A stretch of 64,000 nt of DNA, taken from the NCBI GenBank assembly GCA_021802825.1, contig JAJZRG010000002.1, positions 92,740 through 156,739 on the forward strand. The letters are read 5' to 3'. Every line of letters begins with the position of its first letter. Positions within the stretch are counted from its first letter, which is position 1. This document shows, one piece after another, positions 41,759 to 62,997 of this stretch. Source of the stretch: Chloroflexota bacterium. Its GTDB lineage: Bacteria > Chloroflexota > Limnocylindria > Limnocylindrales > CSP1-4. The notes under the pieces were generated by a model, which saw only the letters and a program-made list of their open reading frames with translations, was not told where the DNA came from and searched no databases. Position numbers and translations under genes: made by a program.

Positions 41759-42193
41759 CCTCTGTCGGGCTCGCTGGCGCTGGGGACGAGCGCCGTCGCC
41801 GGCAGAGGCGGCGGGCCTTGACGTTCCGCGAACCTCGTGACCACCTCCGCCTTCGCTTGACCCCCTCGGGCATGTCTCAGGCGCGATGCGGGCCACGGTG
41901 GCAACAACATCGACCAGCGAGGTCTTGTCGGCCAAGGCGAATCCGAGCGCGTAATGGTCCTCGACGGAGATGTCGCCGTCCGTCTCGCGTCTTGCGATCT
42001 CGCCGGCACTGGCATCAGGTTCTCAACAACGAACCTCAGGCAAGTCGTTTGCGTAGTGTGGGCCGTGTGCGGCGACACCTCGAACCCGGTGTTTTCGTTC
42101 CCCGGTCAGGCACCCACTAGGTACGTCCGCAAGGGATCGTGACACCCGAGCTGCTTCGAAAACCCCTCCCGAGGACGACTGGGCGGAATGACC

Positions 42194-43420
42194 TCACGCA
42201 GGCTGGACGATCGAGACCTGGTAGCCGAGCGCCTCGAGGCGGCGGGTGAGCCGGTGGCGCGTGCGCTCGCGGTCGCGCTCGTCGAGGTAGGCGGCCCCGA
42301 GGTCCTGGAACTCGACCCCGCGGGCGAGGACGTGGTACGCGATCACGATGATGTTGTGGGCGACCGCGAAGGTGGCCCGCTTGGCGCCGCGGCGGGCGGC
42401 GAGCCTCTGGTGGAGCGCGCCGAGGTACGTCGGGCTGCGGCCCGCGGCCTTCGCCGCCTCGACGAGCATCGAGCGGAGCCAGGGGCTGCCCTTGCGGGCG
42501 CGGCCCGAGCGCGACTTGCCGGCGCTCTCGTGGTTGCCCAGGCACAGGCCGGCCCAGGAGGCGAGGTGGCCCGGGCTGGGGAAGCGCCCCATGTCCGACC
42601 CGACCTCGGACAGGATCGTCTCGGCCGTCCGGCGCCCGACGCCCGGGATCGTCTGGAGGCGCGCCAGCTCCGCCTCCAGCCCGGCGAGGCGGGACGCGAC
42701 CTCCGCCGACACCTCGGCGACCAGCGCGTCGATGGCGTCGAGGTGCCGCAGCAGGGCCCCGAGCAGGAACCGCTGGTGCGGGCCGACCCGGCCCTCGAGC
42801 GCCTCGACCAGGGAGTCGTGCTTCTCGCGCATGCGCCCGCGGGCGAGCGACGCGATCGCCTCCGCGTCGGCGTCGCCGCCGACCATCGCCTCGAGCATGG
42901 CCCGGCCCGACACGCCGACCACGTCCGATGCGACCGAGGCGAGCTTGACGTTCGCGCCCTCGAGCACCTTCTGGATCCGGTTGACCTCGGCCGTCCGCGC
43001 CTGGAGCAGGGTGGTGCGGTACCGGGTGAGCTCGCGCAGCTCGCGCTCGGGCCGCTCCGGGATGAACGACGGGCGCAGGAGGCCGTGCCGGAGCAGGTCG
43101 GCGATCCACTCCGAGTCCCGGACGTCGGTCTTGCGGCCGGGGACCGCCTTGAGGTGGGTCGCGTTGACGACGACGAGCTCGAAGCCGCCCTCGAGCACGT
43201 TGTACACGGGCTTCCAGAACGACCCAGTGCTCTCCATCGCGACGACCGAGACGCCCGCCCCCGCGAGCCAGTCGGAGAGCTCGAGCAGTCCCCGGCTGGT
43301 CGAGCGGAACGAGGCGACCTCCCGCTCCGGCCGGCCCCGCTGCCCCGGGGTGAGGCGGCAGGCGACGATGACCCGCTTGTGCACGTCGAGCCCCGCGCAC
43401 CGGGCGTGGACGACTTCCAC
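42194..43420 (-). CDS. IS110-family transposase
   Basis: GTG start with GGAGGAG RBS (VEVVHARCAGLDVHKRVIVA...); DEDD-type N-terminal domain and C-terminal IS110 transposase domain (TIPGVGRRTAETILSEVG). Confidence 0.9.
   Translation of the reverse strand: MEVVHARCAGLDVHKRVIVACRLTPGQRGRPEREVASFRSTSRGLLELSDWLAGAGVSVVAMESTGSFWKPVYNVLEGGFELVVVNATHLKAVPGRKTDVRDSEWIADLLRHGLLRPSFIPERPERELRELTRYRTTLLQARTAEVNRIQKVLEGANVKLASVASDVVGVSGRAMLEAMVGGDADAEAIASLARGRMREKHDSLVEALEGRVGPHQRFLLGALLRHLDAIDALVAEVSAEVASRLAGLEAELARLQTIPGVGRRTAETILSEVGSDMGRFPSPGHLASWAGLCLGNHESAGKSRSGRARKGSPWLRSMLVEAAKAAGRSPTYLGALHQRLAARRGAKRATFAVAHNIIVIAYHVLARGVEFQDLGAAYLDERDRERTRHRLTRRLEALGYQVSIVQPA
42194..43420 (-). mobile_element. IS110-family insertion sequence; ends not definable by eye because IS110 elements lack terminal inverted repeats
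   Basis: Single transposase gene immediately upstream of, and divergent from, the SNF2 helicase start. Confidence 0.6.
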
Positions 43421-43681
43421 CGGACGCTCCTCCGCGGCCGCCGGCGGGCGCCCATCGTTCAGAAACTGCTTCGCGTGCTCGCCCCAGGGGAGCGGCAACA
43501 GACGGCGATGCCCGCAGGCGCCCGGGGCCAGGCTGTCACGCGGGCTCGAGGCACCAATCTTGGTGCGGCCTCGTCGACCGGCACGACCGCGGCCCCATTT
43601 TCATACGCGGCGGTGGCGCGCGTGCCATCAGAGCTGTCACCGCAGGCGTTATGGTTGGCCCGAAGTCCGGGTGCTAGCAAC

Positions 43682-46600: not shown

Positions 46601-47287
46601 ACGCGGCGCGAGGTCGACGCCCGCCTGACCTACGAGATCAACTATTGGGACGGACGGGCGTGGAAGCTCGAGCAGGAGGAGGCCGCCGGCAAGAGCGTCA
46701 AGCTCCCCAGCCTCCAGGCCCGCAGGCGCTCGGACGACCTGCGCGACCGACTGCGCTCGCGCAGCCGCGAGCTCGACCAGGAGGCGCAGGTGGACGCGCT
46801 GCCGCCCGTCGTCGTGGGCGGGGCAATCGTCGTGCCGCAGGGACTCCTCAACCGCCTGTCGGGCAGGCCTGCGCCCGAGGTCGACCTGTTCGCCCGAGAG
46901 ACCCGGCGCATCGAGCTGGCTGCCATGCAGACCGTGTTCGCCGCCGAGCGCGCCGCCGGCCGCGAGCCGCGCGACGTGTCCGCGGACAAGGTGGGCTGGG
47001 ACGTGGAGTCGCGCGAGCCGGGGGGTCGGCTCCGCTTCATCGAGGTCAAGGGCCGCGCCGCGGGCGCGACGACCGTCACGGTGACGCGTAACGAGATCGC
47101 CAAGTCATTCAACGTCCCGGACCGCTGGTACCTCGCCATCGTGACCGTGGACGGCGAGCACGCCGACCCGCCAGTCTACCTGCGCACGCCCTTCCGGCAG
47201 GCGCCGGAGCAGGCGGCGACATCGGTCAACTACGCCATCAAGGAGCTCCTCGAACAGGGGCACATCGTCGAGGTGGGAGGTGTGTAG
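43682..47287 (+). CDS. SNF2-family (superfamily 2) helicase with C-terminal DUF3883 restriction-endonuclease-like domain
   Basis: Motif I LADDPGAGKT, motif II DEAHK, helicase-C region (LATDAAGEGINLQRAHLMVNYDLPWNPNRLEQRFGRIHRIGQ), C-terminal DUF3883-like segment (RLRFIEVKGRAAGATTVTVTRNEIAKSFNVPDRWYLAIV). Start taken at ATG 43682; the longer tracked ORF is an antisense extension across the IS110 gene. Confidence 0.9.
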   Translation: MRGGPEGRTVKIARLEDLTNGALLAGVVPDAHVTVVNVAWHGSAVVTLTYRLADGAVAEKLLFREDEPKLVLVAEGRPWSFDGDGDAFRLASEAKRISLAYLFDPYVAVSTSLVEPLPHQITAVYRELLDRQPLSFLLADDPGAGKTIMTGLYIRELLVRGELRRCLIVAPGSLVEQWQQELADKFHLHFTLLSNELANGSPSGNVFADNDLLIARLDKLSRDEDLQLAIENAPDYDLIVFDEAHKLAATLFGDEVKETRRRKLAVRIRDHGRNLLLLTATPHNGKEADFELFMSLLDPDRFAGHKRKASETAPPASKTDGLMRRLIKEQLVKFDGTALFPPRFAYVVPYDLSDAEAVLYERVTAYVRDEMNRAERLKAEGEGRRGTIVGFALTVLQRRLASSPEAIYQSLRRRRERLERTVAETELLRQSAEVRLRIPELDQVSLTTIRELSEEGDDVDPDDATAAETEDTEETAVDLATAATTIAELRTEIGILRELEALAADVRRRGTDTKWTELSRLFQEAPEMVDAGGGRRKLVVFTEHRDTLNYLAERIGTFLGRPEAIVAIHGGLPRDQRRAAESRFKSDPDAIVLLATDAAGEGINLQRAHLMVNYDLPWNPNRLEQRFGRIHRIGQTEVCHLWNLVAHQTREGDVYARLLEKIQVESEALGGAVFDVLGQLTFEDGKSLRDLLIDAVRKGDSPEMRLWLTDVLDDALDQDNLRALLRQRALGANLLDAATVAGVRDQLERAEAARLQPHYVRGFFLEAFRGQGGTVREREPGRYELTKVPGRIRDRAREAGYRPAVLGAYERIAFEKDRVAVAGTPLAEYVCPGHPLLEATIDLVLHEHRDLLRRGALLVDPTDPGDELRALVYLEHSVIDARPNRNGGPSVVSRRLEFVEIGALDARGAGAAPYLDYRGATADERTKLTPAIAGQPWLVGSAVEGRALAHAIEHLSRAHLAEVRERTLDRVGRTRREVDARLTYEINYWDGRAWKLEQEEAAGKSVKLPSLQARRRSDDLRDRLRSRSRELDQEAQVDALPPVVVGGAIVVPQGLLNRLSGRPAPEVDLFARETRRIELAAMQTVFAAERAAGREPRDVSADKVGWDVESREPGGRLRFIEVKGRAAGATTVTVTRNEIAKSFNVPDRWYLAIVTVDGEHADPPVYLRTPFRQAPEQAATSVNYAIKELLEQGHIVEVGGV

Positions 47288-48634: not shown

Positions 48635-51067
48635 ATGGAGCTTAGCGATCGGCTCGCGGGCGCGGTCTGGGGGCACCTGGTCGGCGACGCGGTGGGCGTC
48701 CCGTACGAGTTCAAGCCGGCGTCCTCGATCACGAGCGTCCACTTCGGCGTCGCGGGGACCCACTCCAAGCCGGCCGGGACGTGGAGCGACGACGGCGCGC
48801 TCATGCTCGCGCTGCTCGACTCGCTGCTGCGCGATCGGCAGGACGGCGAGTCGGTCTTCGACACCGCCGACGAGGCGCAACGCTTCCTGGCGTGGTGCGA
48901 CTCGGGCGCCTACACCCCGGGCGGAGAGGGCAGGTTCGACATCGGCGGGGCGACATCGAACGCCCTTGCGCGCCTGCGTAGCGGCACCCCGGCCGAGGAC
49001 GCTGGCGGCACCGGCGAGCGCGACAACGGCAACGGGTCGCTGATGCGGATCCTTCCCCTCGCGCTCGCCGACCGCGACGCGTCCAGCGAGGTCCTCGTCG
49101 AGCGCGCCTTCCGGGCCTCCGCGGTTACGCATGGGCACGTCGTCTCGCAGGTCGCGTGCGCCATGTATGTCCTGATCGCCCGCTACCTCCTGCTCGGCTG
49201 CTCGCGTCAGGCGGCGTTCGAGCGAGCCCACGGAGCGCTGTTCGGCATGTGGGCGCCGGGGGACGACGCCCGGCTCGCGGTCCTCGCGGAGCTGATGGCG
49301 TGGAAGGGCCGGTCGGGCCGCGGCTTCGTCGTCGACTCGTTCTGGTCGGCGTGGGACGCCCTCACGGGAGCCCACGACTACCGGGGGACGATCGAACGCG
49401 CGGTGCGTTACGGGAACGACACCGACACGACGGCCGCGATCGCTGGCGGACTGGCCGGCATCCGCTTCGGCCTGTCGGGCATCCCCGCGCACTGGCTGTC
49501 CGGCATGCGCGGTGCGGAGGTCGTCGCGCCGCTCGTCGCCAGGCTCACGGGGAGCCCCGCAGCGGCGGCCCTCGCAGGCTCGCCGTTCCGCACGGAGGCG
49601 GCGGTGCCGGGTGCGCGGACGTCGGAGAGCCACCCGCTGTACGTCAACTGGGTGGAGTCGTCTGCGGTTCCTGCGGCGGCCGGCTGGACGGGACGCCTCG
49701 GCATGAGCATCCTCGCCGGAAAGAAGGCCCAGGGGATCGCCGGGCTCCACTGGCGTGACGTCGAGACGGACATCACCAGGCTCGCAGAGCACGAGCACGT
49801 GGAAACCTACGTGCTGCTCGTCGAGGATCACGAGCTCGTCGAGACCAAGACGACGGGCATCCCCGATGCGTGCGCCAGGCACGGGATCGACCTGGTCCGG
49901 TTCCCGGTGGCGGACCACGGCGTGCCGGATCACACGGGCGCATACGCCGCCACGCTCGCGGCGGTCGAGGATCGCCTGCGTGCGGGCCGGACCGTGCTCG
50001 TCACGTGCAAGGGCGGCCTCGGGCGGACTGGCACGGCGGTCGCCTGCATGCTCCGCGACGCGGGCCTCGACGCCGAGGAGGCGATGGCGGTCACCCGCCG
50101 CGCCCGCCACGGGGCGATCGACCACGGCGCGCAGGAGGCGTTCGTCCGCTCCTGGGAGCCGGCAGCGCGTGGCACGTCGGCAAGCGGCCCCGGGGGCGCC
50201 GCCGAGCTGGCCGCCGGCGACGGTTTCACCTTTATCGACGGCGTCCTCTCGGCGTACAAGGCTGAGCTCGCTCGGCTCGCCCGAGGCGTTGTCGCCGGGG
50301 CCGCGCCGTCAGCCCGGGACGCCCGGGCAAGGGTGCTCGAGGCCCACGAGCAGGCCAAGGGCCTGTGGGCGAGGTACTCGCCCGAGGCGGCCGCGTACGG
50401 GCGGGTCGTCGAGGCGGGGCAGGGACGGGCCCGGTTCTTCAACGCGCTCGTCGATGCCGCGACGGCGCGGTGGGGCCAGCCGTCCGCGTCGTACTCGGAC
50501 GCCGTCGCCTGGCAGCGGGCTAGCGAGTGGGTCGACCCGGAGCAGGACACGCTCATCATCGACTGGGTCGTAGGCGAGCTGTCGCGCGAGGCCGAGACGA
50601 TCCTCCCGTTCGACCGCTACGAGGGCGGCGGCCGAAAGCCTCTCGGCAGGCCGCGCCAGGGCGACATGACCGCCCGCCACGGCTACGGGCCGCCCGTCTT
50701 CGAGCAGTGCGGCTACACGTGCGTCTACTGCGGGCTCGAGATGGGGGCATCGTTCGAGAACTGGCTCCAGCTCTCGGTCGACCATGTCATTCCGCGCCAG
50801 ATGAAGAACGCAGGGTTCGACCCGGCCCTAGTCGAGGACATCACGAATCTCGTGACCTGCTGCCGCGAGTGCAACGACTTCGGCAACCGATACACCGTGT
50901 CGGGCGAGGCCCCGGCGACCTACGCCGCCTTCTACGATGTTCGCGACCGCGTGTTCAGCGAGCGCAAGGCGATGATCCTCGCCAAGCGCGAACAGGAGCG
51001 CGCGATCTTCGCCAAGCTGCCGGCCGCCGGGCCGGACCGACCGGCCGTGGCCGGGGAGGACGCGTGA
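48635..51067 (+). CDS. Three-domain fusion: ADP-ribosylglycohydrolase + Cys-based (CX5R) protein/dual-specificity phosphatase-like domain + HNH nuclease
   Basis: ARH motifs GAVWGHLVGDAVGVPYEF ... GNDTDTTAAIAGGLAGI (aa 1-300); phosphatase P-loop VLVTCKGGLGRTGTAVACML (aa about 455-472); HNH motif CGYTCVYCG...LSVDHVIPRQ...NLVTCCRECN (aa about 692-748). Confidence 0.8.
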   Translation: MELSDRLAGAVWGHLVGDAVGVPYEFKPASSITSVHFGVAGTHSKPAGTWSDDGALMLALLDSLLRDRQDGESVFDTADEAQRFLAWCDSGAYTPGGEGRFDIGGATSNALARLRSGTPAEDAGGTGERDNGNGSLMRILPLALADRDASSEVLVERAFRASAVTHGHVVSQVACAMYVLIARYLLLGCSRQAAFERAHGALFGMWAPGDDARLAVLAELMAWKGRSGRGFVVDSFWSAWDALTGAHDYRGTIERAVRYGNDTDTTAAIAGGLAGIRFGLSGIPAHWLSGMRGAEVVAPLVARLTGSPAAAALAGSPFRTEAAVPGARTSESHPLYVNWVESSAVPAAAGWTGRLGMSILAGKKAQGIAGLHWRDVETDITRLAEHEHVETYVLLVEDHELVETKTTGIPDACARHGIDLVRFPVADHGVPDHTGAYAATLAAVEDRLRAGRTVLVTCKGGLGRTGTAVACMLRDAGLDAEEAMAVTRRARHGAIDHGAQEAFVRSWEPAARGTSASGPGGAAELAAGDGFTFIDGVLSAYKAELARLARGVVAGAAPSARDARARVLEAHEQAKGLWARYSPEAAAYGRVVEAGQGRARFFNALVDAATARWGQPSASYSDAVAWQRASEWVDPEQDTLIIDWVVGELSREAETILPFDRYEGGGRKPLGRPRQGDMTARHGYGPPVFEQCGYTCVYCGLEMGASFENWLQLSVDHVIPRQMKNAGFDPALVEDITNLVTCCRECNDFGNRYTVSGEAPATYAAFYDVRDRVFSERKAMILAKREQERAIFAKLPAAGPDRPAVAGEDA

Positions 51068-53892
51068 CCCAGGCCCAACCGCTCAAGCGCAAGCTCATCG
51101 AGGTCGCGCTCCCTCTCGAGGCGATCAACGTGGCCTCGGCACGTGAGAAAAGCATCCGTCGCGGGCACCCGTCCACACTTCACCTGTGGTGGTCGAGGAA
51201 GCCCCTCGCTACGTGCCGCGCAGTTCTGTTCGCAAGCCTCGTCGATGATCCGTCGTCGAACCCGGTCAGCTTTCCTACGCCCAAAGCTGTCGAAGTCGAG
51301 CGAACGCGACTCTTCGGAATCATCGAGCGCTTGGTCGAGTGGGAGAACAGCACGAACGAGGCGGTGCTCGAAGAGGCGCGCACCGAGATCATGCGCTCGA
51401 CCGGCGGCAACCCGCCGTCCGTCCTGGACCCATTTTGCGGCGGCGGTTCGATTCCGCTTGAGGCGCAGCGACTTGGCCTGACGGCGTACGCCAGTGACCT
51501 CAACCCGGTTGCGGTTCTGATAACCAAGGCTCTGATTGAGATCCCGCCGACGTTCGCGAGACTCACGCCTGTCCACCCTGACGCGCGCCGCGGCATGGGC
51601 GGCAGCGGAGCCTGGAATGGCGCCACTGGCTTAGCGGAGGACGTCAGGCGATACGCCGCATGGATGCGGGGCGAAGCCGAGCGTCGGATTGGGCACCTCT
51701 ATCCGCCGACGACGCTCCCGAGGGAACTTGGGGGTGGTGAGGCCACGATCATTGCATCAATCTGGGCGCGCACTGTCACGTGCCCGAATCCAGCCTGTGG
51801 CGCCCAGATGCCCCTGACGACGAAGTTTGCGTTGTCCACGAAGAAGGGCAAGGCAGCCTGGGTCGAGCCGGTCATCGATAGGGTTCGGCGAACGGTCCGA
51901 TTCGAGGTTCGCACTGGGACCATGCCGGCCTCGGCGCTGACCGGGACGGCCACTGTGGGAACCGAAGGCAAGAAGGTCCGATCCTCATTCACCTGCCTTG
52001 TGTGCAGCTCAGGCATGGCAGACGGCGCGTACATCGACGGACAAGCTGACGCTGGAGCCATGGGTGCGGTGCCAATGGCGATGGTGGCTGACGGGCCCCG
52101 GGCTCGAGTGTTCCTCGCGCCCGACGATGACCTGAGAAACGCAGTCGCGGCGGCAGTCGAACTCGTGGAGAACCCAGCGGTCGCCGCGAAGCTGCCGGTC
52201 GAGCCTACGCGCGGGACGTTTGCGAGTAATGCGCAGGGACGCTATTACGGGCTCCGACGGTTCCGGGACTACTTCTCGCCGCGACAACTCCTGACACTCG
52301 CGACACTCGTCGATCTCGTAGGCGAGGTGCGCTTTCGCATCCGGGGTGACGCCACAGAAGCCGGTGACCGCGACGCGGTCGACTACGCCAACGCCATCGC
52401 CATGTACTTGGCGCTCGCTATTGATCGGAGCGCGAACACCCTTTGCACCCTAGCCCGGTGGACGCCAGCTCGTGAGCAGACGGTGACGGCCTTTTCTCGC
52501 CAGGCGATTCAGATGGCCTGGGACTACCCGGAGGTCAACCCATTCTCGGAGGCGGCCGGAGGGTACGGCGTCTCCGTTGATGGGATCGTCGAGGCGCTGA
52601 AGAACTTGCCGGCAACTCGGTCCGGTTATGCGACCCAAGCGGACGCCATGCGGCTGCCGTCTGGCCCGAGCGCCTATCTCGTATCAACCGACCCGCCGTA
52701 CTACGACAACATCGGCTACTCGGACTTGTCGGACTTCTTCTACGTCTGGCTTCGGCGCTGCCTGTCCGATGTTGATCCCGATCTGTTCGGCACGGTATTG
52801 ACCCCGAAGTCGGCGGAGCTCATCGCATCGCCTTACCGTTTTGCAGGCAGCAAGGTCAAGGCTGACGAGCACTTCGAGGCTGGACTTGGCGCAGCGTTCG
52901 CCCGAATGCTCGAGCGCGCGGATCCGACGGTCCCGGTAACGATCTACTACGCGTTCAAGCAGTCCGAGTCTGACGAAGATGACGGTGGAGCCGTTGCGTC
53001 GACTGGATGGGAGACGATGCTGGAGGCGCTCTTGTCCGCCGGGTTTGCCATTGACGGTACTTGGCCAATCCGTAGTGAACTCAGCAACCGTATGGTGGCA
53101 AGCGGCACCAACGCCCTGGCGTCCTCGATCGTTCTCGTATGTCGCGGTCGTTCCACTGACGCTGGTATCGCCACCCGCCGTGACTTCGTGGCAAGCCTGA
53201 AGCGGGAGATGCCGCGAGCCTTGCGAGACCTTCAGCACGGCAACATCGCGCCGGTCGACCTCGCTCAGTCGGCCATCGGACCCGGCATGGCCGTGTTCAG
53301 CCAGTACTCCAATGTCCTCGAGCCCGACGGCACGGCAATGCGCGTGCGCACGGCGCTCTCGCTCATCAATCAGGTCCTCGACGAGATCTTGGCCGAGCAG
53401 GAGGGCGAGTTCGACACGGACACGCGCTGGGCCGTTGCCTGGTACGACCAATACGGGATGAAGGACGCGGAGTTCGGCGTCGCCGATGTCCTCGCTCGTG
53501 CAAAGAACACGTCGGTCCAGGGCATGGTCGAGGCCGGCATCGTATCGGCTGGCCGCGGAAAGGTTCGCTTGCTCGCACGCGACGAGTACGACCAGGGCTG
53601 GGACCCGGCGCACGATCGGCGGCTCCCGGCCTGGGAGGCCGCGCAGCGGCTGGTGCACGTCCTGCTGACCTCAGGCGAAGGCCCGGCCGGGGAGCTGCTG
53701 GCGAAGTTGGGTGGCGTCGGCGAGGCCGCCCGCGACCTCGCGTACCGCCTTTACCAGGTGTCCGAGCGCAAGGGCTGGGCCGACGAGGCACGGGCGTACA
53801 ACGCACTCGTCGTGGCGTGGTCGGACCTGTCGCGCGGCGCCGCGGCGCCTGCCGCGTCCGAGTCGACACAGCCGAGCCTCGGGCTCGAGTAG
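51064..53892 (+). CDS. DUF1156-family N6-adenine/N4-cytosine DNA methyltransferase
   Basis: GTG start overlaps the upstream stop (GTGA); N-terminal DUF1156 signature KRKLIEVALPLEAINVASAREKSIRRGHPSTLHLWWSRKPLATCRAVLFASLVDDP; SAM motif I DPFCGGGSIPLEAQRLG; catalytic motif IV STDPPYYDNIGYSDLSDFF. Confidence 0.9.
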   Translation: MTQAQPLKRKLIEVALPLEAINVASAREKSIRRGHPSTLHLWWSRKPLATCRAVLFASLVDDPSSNPVSFPTPKAVEVERTRLFGIIERLVEWENSTNEAVLEEARTEIMRSTGGNPPSVLDPFCGGGSIPLEAQRLGLTAYASDLNPVAVLITKALIEIPPTFARLTPVHPDARRGMGGSGAWNGATGLAEDVRRYAAWMRGEAERRIGHLYPPTTLPRELGGGEATIIASIWARTVTCPNPACGAQMPLTTKFALSTKKGKAAWVEPVIDRVRRTVRFEVRTGTMPASALTGTATVGTEGKKVRSSFTCLVCSSGMADGAYIDGQADAGAMGAVPMAMVADGPRARVFLAPDDDLRNAVAAAVELVENPAVAAKLPVEPTRGTFASNAQGRYYGLRRFRDYFSPRQLLTLATLVDLVGEVRFRIRGDATEAGDRDAVDYANAIAMYLALAIDRSANTLCTLARWTPAREQTVTAFSRQAIQMAWDYPEVNPFSEAAGGYGVSVDGIVEALKNLPATRSGYATQADAMRLPSGPSAYLVSTDPPYYDNIGYSDLSDFFYVWLRRCLSDVDPDLFGTVLTPKSAELIASPYRFAGSKVKADEHFEAGLGAAFARMLERADPTVPVTIYYAFKQSESDEDDGGAVASTGWETMLEALLSAGFAIDGTWPIRSELSNRMVASGTNALASSIVLVCRGRSTDAGIATRRDFVASLKREMPRALRDLQHGNIAPVDLAQSAIGPGMAVFSQYSNVLEPDGTAMRVRTALSLINQVLDEILAEQEGEFDTDTRWAVAWYDQYGMKDAEFGVADVLARAKNTSVQGMVEAGIVSAGRGKVRLLARDEYDQGWDPAHDRRLPAWEAAQRLVHVLLTSGEGPAGELLAKLGGVGEAARDLAYRLYQVSERKGWADEARAYNALVVAWSDLSRGAAAPAASESTQPSLGLE

Positions 53893-53904: not shown

Positions 53905-56900
53905 GTGGCACTGTCGAACCGCGAGCGCATCGGCCGCATGCTCGATGGGCTCGCCGGCGGGCTCAAGCCGGTCGTGGACAGGATGTTCACCGAGGCGTAC
54001 GGGACGGCGTGGGTGTCGCGCGTCGACGCGGACCGCCCGGCCAACGCCGGGCCGGCGGACCCGAACGACGCCCAGTTCCTGCTCAATGCCGCGTGGTTCC
54101 ACTGGAACGAGACGCTCGGCAGGACGCTCGGGCCGGCCGAGAAGAACTACGTGAACGAGCTCCGCCTGACGCGCAACCGCTGGGCGCACCCGGGCGAGCG
54201 GCCGTTCACCGGCGAGGACGTGTACCGCGCGTACGACACCGCCGAGCGGCTGCTGCGGTCGGTCGCGTCGCCGGCTGCCGACGACGTCGGCAAGGCGAAG
54301 TCGCAGGTCCTGATGGAGAACGCCGTCGCCCAGGCCAAGGACCGCCAGAAGGCGCCGGCCGTCGCCGCCACCGCGGGCGAGCCCGCCAAGGGCCTCGCGC
54401 CCTGGCGCTCCGTCGTCACGCCGCACCCCGATGTCGCCGCAGGGCGGTACCGCCAGGCCGAGTTCGCCGCCGACCTCGCGCAGGTCGCCCGCGGCGAGGG
54501 GGCGAAGGAGTACGTGGATCCGCGCGAGTTCTTCGCGCGGACGTACCTCACAGAGGGGCTGAGGCTCCTGCTCACCGGCGCGCTGCGCCGTCTGGCCGGG
54601 ACCGGCGGCGAGTCTGTCGTGGACCTCCAGACCACGTTCGGCGGCGGCAAGACGCACTCCATGCTCGCGCTCTGGCACCTCGCCGCGGCCGGTGCGTCGA
54701 TCACGTCCCTGCCGGGCCTCGAAGGTGTCGTAGCGGACGCGGGCGTCGCCTCGCTTCCGCGTGTCGCGCGGGCCGCGATCGTCGGCACGTCGCTCTCGCC
54801 GATCACGCCGCGCGTCGTCGAGGGAGCCGAGATCAGGACCCTCTGGGGCGAGCTGGCGTGGCAGCTCGGCGGCCCCGAGGGCTTCGCGCGCGTGGCGGAG
54901 GCCGACCGGGCCGGCGTCCCGCCCGGCGCGGACGCGCTGCGCGGACTGCTGGCCGCCTACGCCCCGGTCGTCGTGCTGGTGGACGAGTGGGTGACGTACG
55001 CCCGGCTCCAGTGGGGCAAGGACGCGCTCCCCGGCGGGTCCTTCGACGCTGCGCTCTCCTTCGCCCAGCAGCTCACCGGCGCCGTGGACCAGGTCCCGGG
55101 CGCCCTGCTCGTCGTGTCGCTCCCGTCGTCGGTGATCGAGGTCGGCGGCGAGGGCGGCCAGAAGGCGCTGGCAGCGCTCAAGCACGTCGTCCACCGCGTC
55201 GACGCGCCGTGGCGCCCGGCCGCGGCGCAGGAGAGCTTCGAGATCGTCCGGCGTCGCCTCTTCGAGCCGATCACCGCGGAGGCGGCGAGGTCGCGCGATG
55301 AGGTCGTGCAGCAATTCTCCGAGCTCTACTCGGCGAACACGGGCATGTTCCCTTCGGACACGAAGGAGAAGTCGTACCTCGAGCGGCTCCGAAACTGCTA
55401 TCCGATCCACCCCGAGCTGTTCGACCGGCTCTTCGACGACTGGTCGACCCTCGAGCGGTTCCAGCGGACGCGCGGCGTCCTCAAGCTGATGGCCGCGGTC
55501 GTCCACACGCTCTGGGAGAAGCAGGACGGCAACCTCCTGATCCTGCCGGGGGCGATCCCGCTGGACGACGGCGAGGTGATGCCGCAGCTCATCCAGTACC
55601 TCGACGACGGCTGGGACGCCATCGTCGAGGGCGATGTCGACGGCACCTCATCGCTGCCGCTCCGGCTCGACCGCGAGAACCACGGGACCTACGGGCGCTA
55701 CTCGGCAGCCCGCCGCGTGGCGCGCACGGTGTTCCTCGGCTCGGCGCCGCTGCCTGCGGCCGCCAACCGCGGCATCGACGACAAGCGGATCCTGCTCGGC
55801 GCGGTCCAGCCCGGAGAGACGCCGGCCACGTTCGGCGACGCCCTCCGGAAGCTCGCCGGCCAGGCGACCTACCTGTACGAGAACGCCGGCCGCTACTGGT
55901 ACTCGACCCAGCCGTCGGTCAACCAGCTCGCGCGCGACCGCGCCGACCAGCAGGCGCAAGACCAGGTCGAGCTCGAGATCGAGGCGCGCCTAAAGAAGGC
56001 GCTCGCGGACCGGCTGCCGTTCCACCGGATCCACGCCGCGCCGCGCGACGCGTCGGACGTGCCCGACGAGGACGAGGTCGCGCTCGTCGCGCTCCGCCCC
56101 GAGCACCCGCACGACGCGAAGGGGCTCGGTTCCAAGGCCCGCGACGCGGCGGCGGCCATCCTGGCGTCGCGGGGCGCGGGCACGCGCGTCAACAAGAACA
56201 TGCTCGTGTTCCTCGCGCCCGACTCCCTCCGCCTGCCGGAGCTCGAGGACGCCGTCCGCCAGTTCAAGGCCTGGTCGTCGATCCTGGCCGACGGGGACGC
56301 CGGCCGACTCAACCTCGACGACTTCGGGCGCGCCCAGGCCAAGTCTCAGCGCGACAGCTTCGACGCGACCGCCACGTCGCGCGTGCCCGAGACGTACCAC
56401 TGGCTGCTCGTCCCCGAGCAGGCGGACGCGCTCTCCCCGGTCGAGCTCAAGGCCGTCAAGATCGCGCCGGGCCCCGACATCGCCGCCCGCGCCGCGGCGA
56501 AGCTCCGCTCCGAGGAGCTGCTGATCACCCGGTACGGCGGCGTCAACCTGCGGCTCGTCCTCACCCAGACGCTGAAGGACTACTGGGGCCAGCACCACGA
56601 AGTGGGCATGCGCGAGCTGTGGGGCTGGTTCGCCCATTACCCGTACCTGCCGCGCCTCCTCGACATGAGCGTCCTCGAGGGCGCGGTCGAGGACGGCGTC
56701 GGGAACCTCCTGTGGCGCTCGGAGACGTTCGCCTACGCGGCGGCTCGTGAAGCTGGCGGGGCGTACATGGGCGTCGTCGCCGGGCGCCGGGCGCCGACGC
56801 CGGTGACCTCGACGAGCCTGATCGTGGACGGCTCGCTCATTCGGGACGCGCCCGCGCGATCGCCCGTGCCGCCCGTGGATGACATGCCGGAGGGCGGACA

Positions 56901-57174
56901 CAAGTCCCCGGAGCCGCCCAAGCCCGCGAGCATCCGCAGGTTCCACGGCCAGGCCGTCCTGTCGGACCCGCGGACGCCGATCCCCGAGCTCCAGAAGCTC
57001 GTCGCCGAGATCATCGGCCCACTTGCCGCCCAGACCGAGGTGAGCCTCACCATCCGCGTGGAGATCGAGGCCGACCACCGCGCCGAGGCCGGTTTCACCG
57101 ACCAGACCATCCGCACCGTGTCCGAGAATGCGCGAACCCTGCGCCTCCGCGACTTCGGCTTCGAGCGGGAGTAG
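53905..57174 (+). CDS. DUF499 (BrxC/PglY-like) P-loop ATPase with N-terminal Swt1-type HEPN domain
   Basis: GTG start after GGGGGAG; HEPN R-x4-H motif LTRNRWAH in the first 110 aa; Walker A TTFGGGKTHSMLAL, Walker B VVVLVDEWVTY; large C-terminal region typical of DUF499 proteins. Confidence 0.9.
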   Translation: MALSNRERIGRMLDGLAGGLKPVVDRMFTEAYGTAWVSRVDADRPANAGPADPNDAQFLLNAAWFHWNETLGRTLGPAEKNYVNELRLTRNRWAHPGERPFTGEDVYRAYDTAERLLRSVASPAADDVGKAKSQVLMENAVAQAKDRQKAPAVAATAGEPAKGLAPWRSVVTPHPDVAAGRYRQAEFAADLAQVARGEGAKEYVDPREFFARTYLTEGLRLLLTGALRRLAGTGGESVVDLQTTFGGGKTHSMLALWHLAAAGASITSLPGLEGVVADAGVASLPRVARAAIVGTSLSPITPRVVEGAEIRTLWGELAWQLGGPEGFARVAEADRAGVPPGADALRGLLAAYAPVVVLVDEWVTYARLQWGKDALPGGSFDAALSFAQQLTGAVDQVPGALLVVSLPSSVIEVGGEGGQKALAALKHVVHRVDAPWRPAAAQESFEIVRRRLFEPITAEAARSRDEVVQQFSELYSANTGMFPSDTKEKSYLERLRNCYPIHPELFDRLFDDWSTLERFQRTRGVLKLMAAVVHTLWEKQDGNLLILPGAIPLDDGEVMPQLIQYLDDGWDAIVEGDVDGTSSLPLRLDRENHGTYGRYSAARRVARTVFLGSAPLPAAANRGIDDKRILLGAVQPGETPATFGDALRKLAGQATYLYENAGRYWYSTQPSVNQLARDRADQQAQDQVELEIEARLKKALADRLPFHRIHAAPRDASDVPDEDEVALVALRPEHPHDAKGLGSKARDAAAAILASRGAGTRVNKNMLVFLAPDSLRLPELEDAVRQFKAWSSILADGDAGRLNLDDFGRAQAKSQRDSFDATATSRVPETYHWLLVPEQADALSPVELKAVKIAPGPDIAARAAAKLRSEELLITRYGGVNLRLVLTQTLKDYWGQHHEVGMRELWGWFAHYPYLPRLLDMSVLEGAVEDGVGNLLWRSETFAYAAAREAGGAYMGVVAGRRAPTPVTSTSLIVDGSLIRDAPARSPVPPVDDMPEGGHKSPEPPKPASIRRFHGQAVLSDPRTPIPELQKLVAEIIGPLAAQTEVSLTIRVEIEADHRAEAGFTDQTIRTVSENARTLRLRDFGFERE

Positions 57175-57177: not shown

Positions 57178-58047
57178 GTGGCCTCAAGACGCGCCCCTGG
57201 GAAGGGCGAACAAAGGCAGGGCCCTCCCATCCTGACCATCGCCCTGGTAGAAGCACAGCGTCTGATTGCCGACCAGCTCGAGCGCGGCAGGCAGATCCGG
57301 GAGCGGCAGATCGGCGATCGCTCGAGTCTTGCGGCAGCGAAGGACGCCTACAACAACTGGGTCGACTACAACCGGGACCTGCTGCGTCGGATCCTGACCA
57401 CGGATGAGCCATCGGACGAGTTCGCGCGGTCGATTCACCTGATGTACGTGCTCGGAGACACGACGCTCGGGGAGGACATCGAGGAGTTCCGATCGGACAT
57501 CGGGACCCACCTCCGACGTCTCGAGTCGATCTCGGACCGACTCCCGCTCTTCGACAACCGGCCGGAGCTCGCCAGCGCCGCCGCACCAGGCACGGAGATC
57601 GACATGAAGCGGGTCTTCGTTGTGCACGGTCACAACCTCGCGGTGCTGGATCGAGTTGTGCGATTGCTGCGCGATCTCGATCTGGAGCCAGTCGTGCTCC
57701 GAGAGCAGGCAAATCAAGGCAGAACCATCATCGAGAAGTTCGAGGCGCACACGGATGTAGCGTTCGCCGTGGTCATCCTGACCGCGGACGACATCGGCGG
57801 AGTCGTCGGCACGGCCCCTGAGGAGTTGCGCCTTCGAGCACGCCAGAACGTCGTGCTGGAGCTCGGGTTCTTCATTGGAAAGCTGGGCAGGCGCTCTGTC
57901 GTGTCGCTACTCGAGCGCCGAGTCGAGGTTCCGAGCGACATCGACGGCGTCCTCTACATCCCGATGGACACCGGTGACTCGTGGCGCCTGCTCCTCGCCA
58001 AGGAGATGAAGGCGGCCGGTCTGCCAGTCGACCTCAATCGACTTTGA
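57178..58047 (+). CDS. TIR-like domain protein (COG4271 / PF10137-type predicted nucleotide-binding TIR-like) with alpha-helical N-terminal domain
   Basis: C-terminal KRVFVVHGHNLAVLDRVVRLLRDLDLEPVVLREQANQGRTIIEKFEAHTDVAFAVVILTADDIGG...RARQNVVLELGFFIGKLGRRSVV matches the TIR-like pattern recalled from CBASS/Pycsar effectors (vFIVHGhD...IIEKFE...faVVLLTpDD...NVifElGfF). GTG start 4 nt after the ATPase stop. Confidence 0.6.
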   Translation: MASRRAPGKGEQRQGPPILTIALVEAQRLIADQLERGRQIRERQIGDRSSLAAAKDAYNNWVDYNRDLLRRILTTDEPSDEFARSIHLMYVLGDTTLGEDIEEFRSDIGTHLRRLESISDRLPLFDNRPELASAAAPGTEIDMKRVFVVHGHNLAVLDRVVRLLRDLDLEPVVLREQANQGRTIIEKFEAHTDVAFAVVILTADDIGGVVGTAPEELRLRARQNVVLELGFFIGKLGRRSVVSLLERRVEVPSDIDGVLYIPMDTGDSWRLLLAKEMKAAGLPVDLNRL

Positions 58048-58111: not shown

Positions 58112-60003
58112 ATGACAGCGCTCGAACGGCAGACCGTTGACGTCGATGAACTGCATGGGCGCATCTCGGCGCTGCCGTTCCCGATTGCGTCCGTCCTTGA
58201 GCTCTATCTGACGGACACGGACAACAGGGATCGCATCGAGGACTTGCTGCACGCCTTCGAGGCCACCGCGGAGTTCGCGGCAAGCGTTCTACTCGCGGGG
58301 CTCCTCCGGGATCCCGAGGGGCTCTCAAGCCACTGGGACTCGATCCGGGGCCCCGGACGCGGCGTCGGTCATGCACTCCGCACGAGCTCCTTCGGCACCT
58401 GGGTGATGCTCGGCACGACGCTTACCGTCGTGGTGAATCGCGAGATCAACCGCGGCAGGGCAACCGACGTTGCAACGGGATTCGGTCTCGCCACGATCGC
58501 TCCACTGGAGGCGCTTGCGACTCGGAGCGCCTGGGAGATTCTCGACAAGGCCAAGGTCATCAGAAACGGCGCAAAGGGGCATGATCCGCGACTCACCCCG
58601 GCGGATCGCGTGAGAATCCTTCTGTCGCTCGAGGCGCTGCTGCTGGAGCTCCTGCCGGCCCTGGAGCGCGCATTCTCCTCTTGGGAGCTGGTTCGGCTTG
58701 GTGGCGCAACGACCCGGCACGGAGTCCTTGCATTCGATGCCCGCAGGCTGACTGGAGCACCGCGAGCGTTCCGTCCTACCCGGATCGAAGTCACTCAGGT
58801 GCTCGAGACCGGTGGCGTCTACATGTACGACGCGCGCGCGAGCGCACCACTCCCTCTCGGCCCGTTCATCCAGCTCGTTCAGGACGACGCCCGGGGCACC
58901 GAGGCCTGCTACTTCTACGACCGCATCGAGAACGAGGAGACGCGCTGGAAGCTGTACCACACCGGCGCCGATTCATCCCTGTCATTCCCGATGCCGGCCC
59001 TGCTGGAGCTTCTCTCGTTCCTCGATGCCGGGCCAGACCGCTCTCTCCCGATTGATCAGCAAGAAGCCGCCGCGAGGTCCGCACGGCTGCGGATCCCGGT
59101 GCGGAAGTGGATCGAGGCTCCGGGTCGGATGCGACTCCCGAGCTGGACATCGGCCGCGAGAGCGCGGTCGAACCGGACGCAGCGGAGCCTCCGGCGGCGG
59201 CGGCCGCAGGCCGAGGCCCCGTGGGCGCCCTCGTCGGCACCGCATTGGCGACAGCGATGTACCCGATCGTCAGGCGCGAGGATCCCACGAGACGGGGCCG
59301 ATCGGTCGACGCATGGCTCGTGGTGGCCGAGCAGGCCGGAATCGTCATCCCCGGCGACAGGGCGCAGAAGCTCAGGTCTGCCTTCAACATCACGCAGCAC
59401 CTCTTCGCGCGCCCCGGGCGCGGGACTTGGACATGGGTCGGCCACGACGCGGCCCTGGTCGCGGACGGCCTGTCAGGCTCGGAGCTGCGAGACAAGGCCT
59501 ACGACGCCGCGCGGGAGCTCGATCCAAGTCGCGGCGGCATCCACTACGAGACGATCAAGGCCGAGCTGCTCCGGCGAGGCGTCGCGATCGCCGGACCGTC
59601 GCAAGGCCGCCGGGTTTGGGCGGCGCTCGGATCGGCTTCGGGCGCTGCCCGATTCCGCGCGCTCGGCGAGGGCCGGTTCGCCTGGGTGACCGACGGCGAC
59701 AACACGGGCACCATCGCCGCCGAGAGCCGAGAGCCGCTGCGACTCCCGCCGGGCCTGCGTGGCTTCGCGGACCTCGCGGGGGCGCTCGACACGCTCCTCC
59801 TGGCCGTGCACCCGTCGATAGGGCGGAATGTTCGCGAAGACGAGGTCGTCTACCTGTCCGCAGCCGAGCCCATTGCCCGGCTCGAGGTTCACCGATCCAG
59901 GCTGCGGATCGTCGTGGACGAGCCCCTCGCCACTACGCCTCACGTCGCGGGCGTTGTCGTCCAGCAGCTTGCACTCCCGGGGCAGCCGAGCCACACGACT
60001 GAG
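58112..60003 (+). pseudogene. 5' portion of a large (about 830 aa) gene of unknown function, frameshifted near 59110-59130 and truncated by an IS insertion
   Basis: Frame-2 ORF from 58112 is protein-like up to about aa 340 and then turns into R/S/P-rich out-of-frame sequence. The frame-1 ORF from 59107 is protein-like with high GC3 and ends in a TAG that lies inside the IS left inverted repeat. Confidence 0.55.
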
Positions 60004-61084
60004 GGCCTGTAGCCGAATTCTCCCGCACGAATGTCCCCGCTCGTGCCAGCAAAGGTGTCACAGCCTGGCCTGAGCATGCCGGGCAAGGGCACGATCGTCG
60101 ACCTCGCCGACGCCGAGTGGGAGCAGGTCGCCGACCTGTTCGACCCTGAGGGCCGGCGCGGTGCACCCGAGGTCTACCCGCGCCGGACCATGGTTGAGGC
60201 GATGCTGTGGATGGCCCGGACCGGTGTCCAGTGGCGCTATCTGCCCGAGCGGTTCCCGCCCTGGACCGCCGTCTGGAGCCAGTGGCGGCGCTGGCGGGCC
60301 AACGGGGTCTGGGCAGCGTCCATCGGCCGGCTCGCCCGCACGATCCGCGTGGACAAGGACCGCCACCCCGAGCCCTCGATGGTGATGGTCGACGCCCAGA
60401 CGGCCAAGGGTGGCCGGGCGGGCCCCACGTTCTGGGAATGCGTACGGTGAGCGGGCCTTCCGCAGGGCGGCCGGACGTTCGGCGCCAAGCGCTCGATCCT
60501 GGTCGACATCCTGGGCCTGCCGTTCGCCTGCCGGGTCGATCCGGCCCGGCCCCATGACGTCGCCTCGGCCCGCCTGCTCCTCGCCGAGGAGCTCCCCGCG
60601 CTCCCACGCCTGCGCGCCGTCGTCGCCGACCGCGCCTACCGCGGCCTCGCGAAGCTCGCCGCACGGCGTGATCTTGTCCTCGACATCAAGGCGCCGCCGG
60701 CGGGGGCGAGCGGCTTCGTCCCCATCAGGCCGCTGGTCAAGGTCGAGCACGCCTTCGCGCAGCTCGGACGCTGGCGACGCCTGTCGCGCTGCGACGAGCA
60801 GACCGAGGCGTCGGCCCGGGCCTGGCTCGAGGTCGCGGCCATGGGCTACCTGTTCGCGAGGATGCGGATCGAGCCCGCCTGACACGTTGCCCGCAGCCAG
60901 CCAGCCAGTCGCCTGGCCTCATCCGGCGCGGCCCGTCGGCTCCCGATGACCGACTCTCCGCGGGCGGTCGTGGCACCGGGTGCTGCGTGACCCGCCGTCC
61001 GATCCCTTGCCTTCTCTCCGCCGCGATCGTTCGCGTGTCCGACCCGATCAGGTCGTGCCAGAACGGCGAATTCGGCTACAGGCC
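60004..61084 (+). mobile_element. IS5-family insertion sequence (IS427/DUF4096 group-like), 1081 bp
   Basis: 17-bp perfect terminal inverted repeats GGCCTGTAGCCGAATTC (60004-60020) / GAATTCGGCTACAGGCC (61068-61084), flanked by a 5-bp direct repeat CTGAG (59999-60003 and 61085-61089). Confidence 0.75.
60031..60882 (+). pseudogene. IS5-family transposase (DUF4096 N-terminal + DDE domain), interrupted by an in-frame TGA at 60448-60450
   Basis: N-terminal WRYLPERFPPWTAVWSQWRRWRANGVW (DUF4096). After the TGA, the same frame continues RSILVDILGLPFACRVDPARPHDVASARLLL...VVADRAYRG...PLVKVEHAFAQLGRWRRLSRCDEQTEASARAWLEVAAMGYLFARM (DDE domain, ends 60882). Likely true start is MPGKGTIVDLADAEW at 60076. 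Confidence 0.75.
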
Positions 61085-61692
61085 CTGAGTCCTGGCTCAC
61101 CGTCGGCGACGAGCGCTCCTTGGATGCCGCGACACTCCTCGTGGCGGCCAGAGGCGCCAGGGCGCGCCACCAGTACCTCGACGCGGGGTACCGGCGGGAC
61201 GTCGAGCGGGCAAAGGCCGCCAGCGGCACGCAGTTCGCGCCGGGCTGGGGCGATGGCGATCGCCCGGGAGGGGACCTCACGGGGGAGGCTCTGGTCGCGT
61301 TCTGGACCGGACTGATCTTGCGATACCCGAGCGTCGCGGCCGCAACTAGGGCCTGGGCGCCCAAGGGTCGCCGACTGGGCTCATCGGGAGCGGGCGGCGT
61401 CTACCGCACGCTCCGCATCGACGAGTTTGGCGTCCTGGCGACGTACTGGACGGCCGTCGCTCGCGGCCACCAGCCCGCGGGCGACGACCTAGAGGAGCAG
61501 GGCCGGGCGATCGAAGAAGCGCTTGGCCATCCCGTCATCGTCCTGAACTACGCGGCCGGGACGTGGTTCGCCGACCGCGTCTATCTCGGGGCGCTCGACG
61601 ACGCGGCGCGCTGGCCGGAGGTGTGGGCGGCCTGCGACGCCGGGCTCACGGCGTTGCTGGCGGCCGCGACCGCGATCGCGACCGCCCGCTAG
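61085..61692 (+). pseudogene. 3' portion of the IS-disrupted gene (continues the 58112-60003 reading frame across the CTGAG target duplication)
   Basis: Removing the IS and one CTGAG copy joins ...HTTE to SWLTVGDERSLDAATLLVAARG... in the same frame (codon phase 1 on both sides). Confidence 0.55.
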
Positions 61693-62092
61693 GTTCGACG
61701 CCTTGCTGCAACCTCCAGGCGCTGAGGGCGCGCTCAGTTCGTCGACGCGTTCGGGACGTAGCGGTGCGGCCCCGAACCCGACGTGGACCTTGCCCGTGAC
61801 ACCCTTGGTGTCGTGGTGGAAGTAGATGCGCGGGATGTTCGGCCCGCCGCCCTCGGACTGAGAATGATCATGCCCACGGAGGGTAGCGTCGGCCTCCCGA
61901 CAGGCGGCGGAGGCGAAGTAGAGTCGAGGCGCACAGCGATCGACAGCAGCGGGAACGCATCGATGCCCACCTGCGACGACGACGAGCTCGGCGGCGATTT
62001 CCACACGTCCCGACGGTAGCTCCTTAGTCAGAGTGCTCGAAGCGTACACACTCTGCCTTGACACGCGTCCATACTCGGCGCAGAGTCCCGGC

Positions 62093-62398
62093 ATGCAGAA
62101 CGTGATTGGCATCCGGACTCTTCGGCGGGGCGTCAACGGGGCGCTCCTGCGCGTGGCGCGCGGCGAGACGATCGTCCTCGTGCGGCACGGGCGGCCGGTC
62201 GCGATCCTCCGGCCCCTCGGCGTGGGCGAGCTGTACCGGCGGGTGTCGGTCACGACCTTCCGGCGGAACCTGCGGCGGGCCGTGCTGGTGTCGCACCGCC
62301 GCCCGATTACGCTGACCTGGTACGGCGACGGGGCCGCGGTCCTGGCGCCCGTCCCGCCCGAGCTCGAGCTCGAGTACGAAGAGGACGACCTCCTGTGA
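62093..62398 (+). CDS. Phd/YefM-like antitoxin-domain protein with two tandem antitoxin-like domains
   Basis: MQNVIGIRTLRRGVNGALLRVARGETIVLVRHGRPVAILRPLG and VSVTTFRRNLRRAVLVSHRRPITLTWYGDGAAVLAPV both resemble the Phd/YefM N-terminal fold. Confidence 0.55.
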   Translation: MQNVIGIRTLRRGVNGALLRVARGETIVLVRHGRPVAILRPLGVGELYRRVSVTTFRRNLRRAVLVSHRRPITLTWYGDGAAVLAPVPPELELEYEEDDLL

Positions 62399-62997
62399 CC
62401 GCCGGCGGGATGATCCAGGCGCTCGGGATGCGCGAGGTCCGCGAGAGGATGCGCGCGGTCGTGGCGCGGGTCGAGGCGGGCGAGGCCCTCGTGGTGCTCC
62501 GCGACGGGCAGCCGGCCGCGGTCATGCTCGGCTTCGCCGAGGGGCAGCGCTGGCAGCAGGTCGAGCGGTCGCTGTCCTCGCTCCACGGCCTCGAGCTGTA
62601 CCCGGAGCTGGCGCGCGACACCGCCGAGCTGGCGCGGCTCGTGCGCCGCGAGGCCCGGCCCTCGGCCACCGCGATCCGCCGCCTGGCCGAGCAGCCTCGC
62701 GACATCCTGGCGCCGCTGCGGACGATGGGGATCACCGACGCTCGGGCCGGGTTCGCGGCGCTGCTCGACGAGGTCGGGCGGGGGCGGACGATGACGATCG
62801 TGTCGAGCGGCAGGTTCGCCGCCACGCTCGTCGCGCCGCGCGAGTTCGACCGCCTCCGCGCGCTCGACCGCACGGTGGGCTGGTTCCGGTCCGCGGGGCT
62901 CGACCTCGCGGCCGCGGACGACGCCGCGATCGCCGCCTTCGTGCGCGAGTTCGCGACCCGGTCGGCGGCGGCCGGCGCCGAGCAGGCGGCGGGGTAG
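62395..62997 (+). CDS. Second protein with two tandem Phd/YefM-like antitoxin domains
   Basis: GTG overlaps the upstream stop; LGMREVRERMRAVVARVEAGEALVVLRDGQPAAVMLGFAE and MGITDARAGFAALLDEVGRGRTMTIVSSGRFAATLVAPREFDRL. Confidence 0.5.
   Translation: MTAGGMIQALGMREVRERMRAVVARVEAGEALVVLRDGQPAAVMLGFAEGQRWQQVERSLSSLHGLELYPELARDTAELARLVRREARPSATAIRRLAEQPRDILAPLRTMGITDARAGFAALLDEVGRGRTMTIVSSGRFAATLVAPREFDRLRALDRTVGWFRSAGLDLAAADDAAIAAFVREFATRSAAAGAEQAAG

Follow-up and report, generated by a model that had tools for sequence, protein, structure and literature searches.

Probable remains of a single large defence-island gene, broken by a frameshift and an IS5-family insertion, downstream of an Hma system

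DUF4268 domains accompany the GmrSD type IV restriction enzymes (PMC4619093, PMC5714182) and occur in MdgA and MdgB, experimentally active modification-dependent anti-phage nucleases in which the domain is the proposed substrate-recognition part (bioRxiv 10.1101/2025.02.28.640651). A different group of described effectors is formed by the HEPN RNases of defence and abortive infection, including PrrC/RloC, AbiD/F, Csx1/Csm6 and the Swt1-type domain of HmaC. Here we describe a locus at positions 58112-61692 of a 64,000-nt stretch of DNA from a Chloroflexota bacterium (contig JAJZRG010000002.1); this whole stretch is referred to as the window and all coordinates are window positions. The locus is likely to represent the remains of one independent defence-island gene of ~830 codons, lying just downstream of an Hma system (HmaA, HmaB and HmaC) and of a PDC-S35 TIR gene. 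Like GmrSD, MdgA and MdgB, the restored product would be a single-polypeptide putative defence protein, encoded in a defence island and ending in a putative DUF4268-type domain. Unlike these enzymes, its prospective effector is an unannotated helical domain with an RNxxxGH motif and not DUF262/HNH or another DNase domain, and two predicted winged-helix domains and an extra α/β domain precede the C-terminus.

By both the list of open reading frames (ORFs) of the window and the sequence itself, the locus contains three collinear ORFs on one strand:

58112-59689, + strand, ORF in frame 2
59107-60012, + strand, ORF in frame 1
61120-61692, + strand, ORF in frame 1

It is very probable that these are pieces of one ancestral gene of ~830 codons carrying two lesions, a frameshift and the insertion of an insertion sequence (IS), since uninterrupted relatives align across both. 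An appropriate annotation would treat the three ORFs as pieces of a single pseudogene instead of three hypothetical proteins. The parts of the gene are given below with their equivalents in the closest relative, P0001 (812 aa, from a JGI metagenome), and with the confidence (predicted local distance difference test, pLDDT) of an AlphaFold2 (AF2) model of the reconstruction:

58112..59143, + strand: 5′ part, frame 2; N-terminal helical domain (R151-N152-x4-H157), beta domain and start of the linker; equivalent to P0001 residues 6-305; AF2 pLDDT >85 over residues 11-323
59114..59143, + strand: frameshift interval, from the change point (100:1) and the G+C content at third codon positions (GC3); residues 335-344, inside the AF2-disordered linker 327-369; identical in the separately assembled contig L004
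59144..60002, + strand: middle part, frame 1; remainder of the linker, two winged-helix-like domains and first half of the α/β domain; equivalent to P0001 residues 351-615 and to seven other C-terminal modules; AF2 H375-441, H455-524 and 546-630
61089..61692, + strand: 3′ part, frame 1; second half of the α/β domain and DUF4268-like C-terminal domain; stop codon 61690-61692; equivalent to P0001 residues 616-808; AF2 residues 631-829, pLDDT mostly >85

In-silico excision of the IS together with one copy of its target joins 59107-60003 to 61090-61692 in frame. The restored junction reads ...QPSHTTE|SWLTVGDERSLDAATLL..., in a single frame to the stop at 61692, and the sequence that follows the junction is SWLTVGDERSLD...; the IS junction lies between codons 630 and 631 (E630|S631). 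When the 830-aa reconstruction was searched against 5.8 billion proteins, P0001 was the sole match, with 49% identity over 99% of the query (E 4e-229). A single alignment with this protein passes through both the frameshift region and the IS junction (window TTESWLTVGDERS, P0001 ATESWIPISGSRS). Word-indexed protein searches are nearly blind to this GC-rich protein (1 and 3 matches), and the family was recovered only by an exhaustive profile hidden Markov model search of 1.84 billion cluster representatives, which yielded 952 proteins. Among these, P0002 (815 aa, E 7e-206), P0006 (857 aa) and P0005 (795 aa) are further single-ORF relatives spanning both lesions, and the IS junction is part of a contiguous block when eight C-terminal modules are aligned. 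The initial annotation had proposed an original gene of ~830 aa, restored in frame by removal of the IS and one CTGAG copy, and had made its reading depend on conservation of the junction in homologues; all of this is borne out. A scan of representative genomes found no relatives, a metagenome scan added one short contig with the N-terminal domain (L024), and cluster look-ups returned no names. Intact templates for the family are available in P0001 and P0002.

Within the frame-2 ORF, similarity to the relatives is confined to the first ~306-340 residues, in agreement with the initial annotation, which had described it as protein-like for ~340 aa and out of frame beyond. In frame 1 a TGA occupies 59053-59055 and the reading frame is open from 59056; frame 2 meets its first stop only at 59689, and no stop codon is present where the coding changes frame. 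The GC3 profile places the change from frame 2 to frame 1 near 59100-59200. A change-point scan, using a codon-usage model trained on the neighbouring Hma genes, narrows it to 59114-59143 (100:1 support), corresponding to codons 335-344. Loss of 1 bp or gain of 2 bp would account for the frameshift. The needed shift being -1 and the frames not being separated by a stop, the change could in principle be a programmed -1 ribosomal frameshift, in which case the gene upstream of the IS would be intact. However, direct reading of 59056-59150 reveals no slippery heptamer of the form X XXY YYZ, each full-length relative is encoded by one plain ORF, and the sequence of the linker is not conserved. With the slippery site absent and the relatives plain ORFs, programmed frameshifting was rejected, and we regard it as extremely improbable.

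A sequencing or assembly error, which would leave the IS insertion as the sole real lesion, would suit the setting of the frameshift. The interval 59114-59143 lies in a GC-rich stretch with just short G3 and C3 runs, the window resembles a metagenome assembly, and a missing base cannot be located by homology because the linker lacks conservation. Three-base runs are, however, atypical error sites in short-read assemblies, and the interval is base-for-base identical in a separate MEGAHIT contig (L004, ENA ERZ27237050). A third assembly (L005, Logan SRR13189623) is identical over 1659 bp, comprising the right three-quarters of the IS and the junction. Public gene calls also treat the locus as broken: the database entries P0003 (251 aa, ending ...HTTEGL), which begins downstream of the shift, and P0004 (190 aa), on record from assemblies at NCBI, ENA and Logan, represent fragments of this very locus. 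An error as the source of the frame change is therefore held to be highly unlikely. The three assemblies sharing the lesions may come from the same sample, which leaves some room for a systematic error at the frameshift; because the independence of their samples cannot be shown, we retain a small residual chance of an artefact at this site. The IS insertion is not in doubt. A scan of JGI metagenome contigs yielded no IS-free allele with the empty site CACACGACTGAGTCCTGGCTC.

The inserted element has the following features:

60003..61085, + strand: IS5-family IS of 1083 bp with perfect 18-bp inverted repeats, assigned by its transposase families; the repeat is also present in 15 soil loci from metagenome-assembled genomes (MAGs)
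60003..60020, + strand: left inverted repeat, 18 bp; source of the TAG at 60010-60012
61068..61085, - strand: right inverted repeat, 18 bp
60000..60002, no strand: target-site duplication, left copy, TGA (or CTGAG at 59999-60003)
61086..61088, no strand: target-site duplication, right copy, TGA (or CTGAG at 61085-61089)
60031..60882, + strand: transposase gene, a single frame in translation with an in-frame TGA at 60448-60450

The terminal inverted repeat GGGCCTGTAGCCGAATTC is perfect over 18 bp at 60003-60020 and 61068-61085, and none of 100 shuffles of the window contained two matches to it. As the initial annotation had recognised, the TAG that closes the middle ORF (C-terminal end ...HTTE-GL-TAG, 60010-60012) is supplied by the left repeat. 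The transposase scores 153.2 bits against NCBIfam NF033580 “IS5 family transposase” (cut-off 110) and matches Pfam PF13340 DUF4096 (5e-23) and PF01609 DDE_Tnp_1 (2e-10). Its closest annotated relative, with 56% identity, is encoded on a Miltoncostaea oceani plasmid by an uninterrupted IS5-family ORF of 258 aa; the alignment continues across the in-frame TGA at 60448-60450, which falls in a short insertion relative to this intact transposase. The same TGA is present in the Logan assembly L005, and because of it the window copy is probably inactive and unable to transpose on its own. With a length of ~1.1 kb, 18-bp terminal inverted repeats, one DDE transposase above the NF033580 cut-off and a short palindromic target with a duplicated TNA core, the element has the traits of the IS5 family, from which this probably non-autonomous copy differs by the in-frame stop in its transposase gene.

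The 18-bp terminal repeat recurs in 15 soil MAG loci (L009-L023), 13 of them from Chloroflexota (Chloroflexia and Limnocylindrales), a distribution that hints at the phylum from which the window derives. At 15 of the 18 ends of this IS type, counted over the window, its duplicate assemblies and the MAG loci, the flank outside GGGCC is CTNA with a variable N, which points to a palindromic, CTNAG-like target. Given a palindromic target and an element with G as its first and C as its last base, the duplication may be 3 bp (TGA, with the IS at 60003-61085) or 5 bp (CTGAG, with the IS at 60004-61084), the two not being distinguishable; the reconstruction is the same for both. Among the IS5-family subgroups 3 bp is the more usual length of the duplication. 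Candidate subgroups for the element, of the DUF4096 plus DDE_Tnp_1 type, are IS427, IS1031 and ISL2 (ISfinder). The IS5-family element and the flanking repeat of the initial annotation are thus both present, but the duplication, given there as CTGAG, may instead be a 3-bp TGA with borders 60003-61085. A full copy of the IS in one of the MAG loci (L017, 3905-4954) has differing flanks (TCA and TGA), as expected from recombination between copies.

The AF2 model of the reconstruction, calculated from an alignment of 113 sequences, has a mean pLDDT of 85.5, whereas an earlier prediction from two sequences only had been useless (pLDDT 35). The predicted organization of the protein is:

residues 11-187: helical domain
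residues 192-291: beta-rich domain with two further helices; the ~100-residue beta domain is conserved
residues 327-369: disordered linker, pLDDT <50
residues 375-441 and 455-524: two helix-helix-helix-strand-strand units
residues 546-660: α/β domain
residues 662-829: C-terminal α/β domain

According to this model the frameshift (codons 335-344) would lie inside the disordered linker and the IS junction (E630|S631) inside the first α/β domain. The predicted topology of the units 375-441 and 455-524 fits a winged helix, and neither unit has a Pfam match.

In this framework the two lesions would affect the protein as follows. The frameshift at ~59114-59143, in the interdomain linker, would disconnect the N-terminal domain from everything downstream. 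The target of the IS5-family element was a CTNAG site (C|TGA|G) at the boundary of codons 630 and 631; the insertion splits the predicted α/β domain of the C-terminal module and separates the DUF4268-like end from the rest. A full-length protein can no longer be produced. The lesions look recent, because the coding sequence shows no further stop or indel and has kept the conserved motif residues. A decay driven by toxicity or cost is plausible, and the loss of a potentially self-toxic gene is expected in a defence island. Pseudogenisation in itself is ordinary, as IS- and frameshift-broken genes are common in such islands; the added value of the reconstruction is that it exposes an unannotated multidomain protein family of defence islands.

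The near-invariant residues of the N-terminal domain are L21, P22, P24, E50, W97, R151, N152 and H157, the last three forming the motif RNxxxGH. Across 22 sequences R151-N152-x4-H157 shows no variation, and in sets of 113-149 sequences its conservation is at least 90%; judged by these alignments it matches the HEPN catalytic motif Rx4-6H in spacing and composition. The domain shares with the HEPN defence and abortive-infection RNases a predicted helical fold carrying an invariant Arg-Asn...His with Rx5H spacing, as well as a conserved Glu in an earlier helix and a linkage to restriction-modification (R-M)-type genes. It differs from them in the trailing conserved beta domain of ~100 residues, and in being carried most often at the C-terminus of proteins that contain an N6 methyltransferase and half a specificity subunit. 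The HEPN families also differ from the window domain in that no significant profile or fold match connects them. HEPN-type RNases normally need dimerisation. Taking these features together, we regard the N-terminal domain as a putative HEPN-like RNase, an assignment that we hold with slightly better than even confidence and as a lead, not as membership of the superfamily.

Within the family the N-terminal domain greatly outnumbers the C-terminal module: in the whole-protein search more than 700 cluster representatives reached E <= 1e-10, mostly through this domain. Among the best 141 of the 952 proteins it forms the C-terminus of ~770-aa proteins in 113 cases, a stand-alone protein of ~300-340 aa in 17 and an N-terminus in 9. 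In the ~770-aa proteins the N-terminal half combines an N6 DNA methyltransferase with one half of a type I specificity subunit (Pfam N6_Mtase, HsdM_N and Methylase_S; PADLOC mad2, MTase_I and Specificity_I). Such methyltransferase-specificity-RNxxxGH fusions are found within P0012-P0150, for example at L007 8001-10235, and one member (P0016) adjoins a complete type I R-M operon. Other partners of the domain are a protein kinase, a HARE-HTH plus ResIII helicase and DUF4116 repeats. A 2013 survey of HEPN proteins stated that the R-M-associated members fuse with nucleases, helicases and ATPases “but not to the methylases” (PMC3710099); if the N-terminal domain is a HEPN RNase, it contradicts this published view that R-M-linked HEPN domains avoid methylases. 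Despite its abundance, with hundreds of methyltransferase-specificity fusions and further ones to kinases and helicases, the domain has no Pfam or PADLOC model, and naming it would improve the annotation of many R-M-like loci.

The C-terminal module (C-module) is rare among family members. In addition to the window architecture it is joined to a small N-terminal domain with an RNDAQH motif (P0007, P0031) and, in P0008, to the abortive-infection domain AIPR (PF10592, E 1e-40), which there stands in place of the N-terminal domain and precedes the same C-module; the window protein itself has no AIPR domain. These exchanges suggest that the C-module may be a constant sensor or regulatory body with interchangeable effector heads. 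Its last ~140 residues match PF14088 DUF4268 in P0009 (33.9 bits) and P0005 (26.2 bits, cut-off 27), and the matching ends of these proteins align with window residues ~690-830. The window protein itself has no match to PF14088; it is called DUF4268-like by transitivity through P0005 and P0009.

Combining the two halves, we tentatively propose, at somewhat below even probability, that the intact protein was a single-chain anti-phage protein with an effector and a sensor. In the proposed mechanism the nucleic-acid-binding part would consist of the DUF4268-like domain together with the two winged-helix domains, with modified phage DNA as a possible ligand. The N-terminal R-N-x4-H helical domain would serve as the effector, a HEPN-type RNase that would be set free on sensing and would then arrest growth of the infected cell. 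This arrangement fits, because the C-module swaps heads (RNDAQH domain, AIPR) and the N-terminal domain is mostly carried on methyltransferase-specificity fusions. A more far-reaching and rather doubtful version is that the N-terminal domain represents a large unnamed family of HEPN-like nucleases. The intact gene would then encode a new single-protein immune sensor, coupling a putative RNase to a winged-helix/DUF4268 reader, so that a detector resembling those of type IV restriction would drive an abortive-infection RNase in place of a DNase.

Several results weigh against these functional assignments. None of the domains of the window protein has a significant sequence or fold match to a named family. 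Searches of Pfam, NCBIfam and PADLOC gave no match for either half of this protein or for P0001, and Foldseek searches of the PDB and BFVD returned nothing at E <= 1e-3. For the N-terminal domain the best PDB profile matches are the Csx1-Crn2 chains 8Y7F, 8Y7G, 8Y6Z and 8Y75, at non-significant E-values of 0.14-1.1. Two details nevertheless favour the HEPN reading: the Csx1-Crn2 alignment places the family R, N and H on R401, N402 and H406, residues that are essential for the HEPN RNase by mutagenesis (PMC11317161), and the best Pfam match among 22 members is HEPN_Swt1, at E 0.0096 in one of the 22. Comparison by hhalign with the Swt1-type HEPN domain of HmaC in the same island, either by itself or as a profile of eight sequences, gave a non-significant E of 0.23-0.25, and significant profile similarity to a recognised HEPN family was found in none of these Csx1-Crn2, HEPN_Swt1 and Swt1 comparisons. 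The winged-helix-like units compare weakly with the HARE-HTH pair of P0063 (hhalign E 0.008 but probability 5%), and PDB profile searches with the C-module and with the winged-helix pair gave no matches. Finally, we infer a defence function from the neighbourhood alone.

The initial annotation had regarded the gene as knocked out. This is shown only for the full-length protein; the N-terminal domain (residues 1 to ~335) is still an open frame with its native start and an intact motif. Judging from the reading frame, an N-terminal product of ~335 native and ~190 out-of-frame residues may still be made and active, and the locus may not be fully dead, which speaks against a complete inactivation. 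A stronger form of this idea, that the frameshift created a stand-alone N-domain gene and that only the sensor half was lost, would be in keeping with the 17 stand-alone proteins of ~300-340 aa among the best 141 matches, with the position of the break in the disordered linker just past the domain, and with the preservation of the native start and of E50, W97, R151, N152 and H157. However, frame 2 remains open to 59689 and adds ~190 out-of-frame residues rich in Arg, Ser and Pro, unlike the natural stand-alone forms, and an unregulated nuclease domain is expected to be toxic. We judge such a functional stand-alone gene unlikely and prefer to read the locus as the remains of one broken gene.

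The genes that precede the broken gene in the island are:

42188-47287: HmaA
47339-48565: 408-aa protein with two topoisomerase-type C4 zinc ribbons
48635-51067: 810-aa fusion of ADP-ribosylglycohydrolase, dual-specificity/PTP phosphatase and HNH nuclease
51070-53892: HmaB
53905-57174: HmaC, Swt1-HEPN and DUF499
57178-58047: PDC-S35 / CAP12-Pycsar-type TIR protein, between HmaC and the broken gene

The broken gene lies on the same strand as HmaC and the TIR gene and follows them with tight spacing, as an accessory component of the adjacent Hma system might. A SNF2-family helicase, moreover, is present in the neighbourhoods of three of five relatives, as it is in the window, and directly adjoins P0002 and P0007. 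Against such a role, HmaB (DUF1156) and HmaC (DUF499) are absent from all five neighbourhoods, the broken gene has no match to a PADLOC Hma model, and the partners of the relatives are different in every case. P0002 (L003) is flanked by a DrmD-like SNF2 helicase, an HSP70-like gene, McrBC, an AAA_11/12 helicase and UvrD; P0006 (L006) adjoins a SIR2 protein; P0005 adjoins AAA_13, SNF2, DEAD+MZB and Macro genes; P0007 (L008) is flanked by a type IIG R-M enzyme, a PLD-SNF2 helicase and McrBC; and the neighbourhood of P0001 contains no recognisable defence genes. SNF2-family helicases thus recur near the relatives, in a set of five cases only. Membership of the Hma system was rejected on this neighbourhood evidence and is considered quite unlikely. 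The initial annotation had suggested looking for intact orthologues beside DUF499/DUF1156 loci, and none were seen in the five neighbourhoods. Because the relatives' neighbourhoods are without HmaB or HmaC, the gene is, on present sequence comparisons, a self-contained resident of the island, a neighbour but not a component of the Hma system.

The TIR protein at 57178-58047 is a candidate single-gene defence element; with this candidate between HmaC and the broken gene, the island would therefore have three layers. The 408-aa and 810-aa genes lie inside the Hma operon, between HmaA and HmaB, and neither is part of the PADLOC Hma definition. In the HmaA ORF the first ~510 residues (42188-43720) precede the region matched by the HmaA model (511-1692) and have no Pfam or PADLOC match; they are either an uncharacterised N-terminal domain or the result of an over-extended ORF in GC-rich DNA.

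At its outer sides the island is bordered by housekeeping genes (G6PD, i.e. glucose-6-phosphate dehydrogenase, and glucoamylase) upstream of ~38 kb and, downstream of the broken gene, by Phd-like antitoxins and pilus genes; no tRNA marking an island boundary was found in the window. At 62033-62997 two consecutive ORFs (121 and 200 aa) resemble Phd/YefM-type antitoxins, the second with its Phd match in the C-terminal half, and have no recognisable toxin gene adjacent to them. They are followed by a gene resembling a pilin of type IV secretion systems and then, in the longer ENA contig, by genes of Tad/type II secretion system type.

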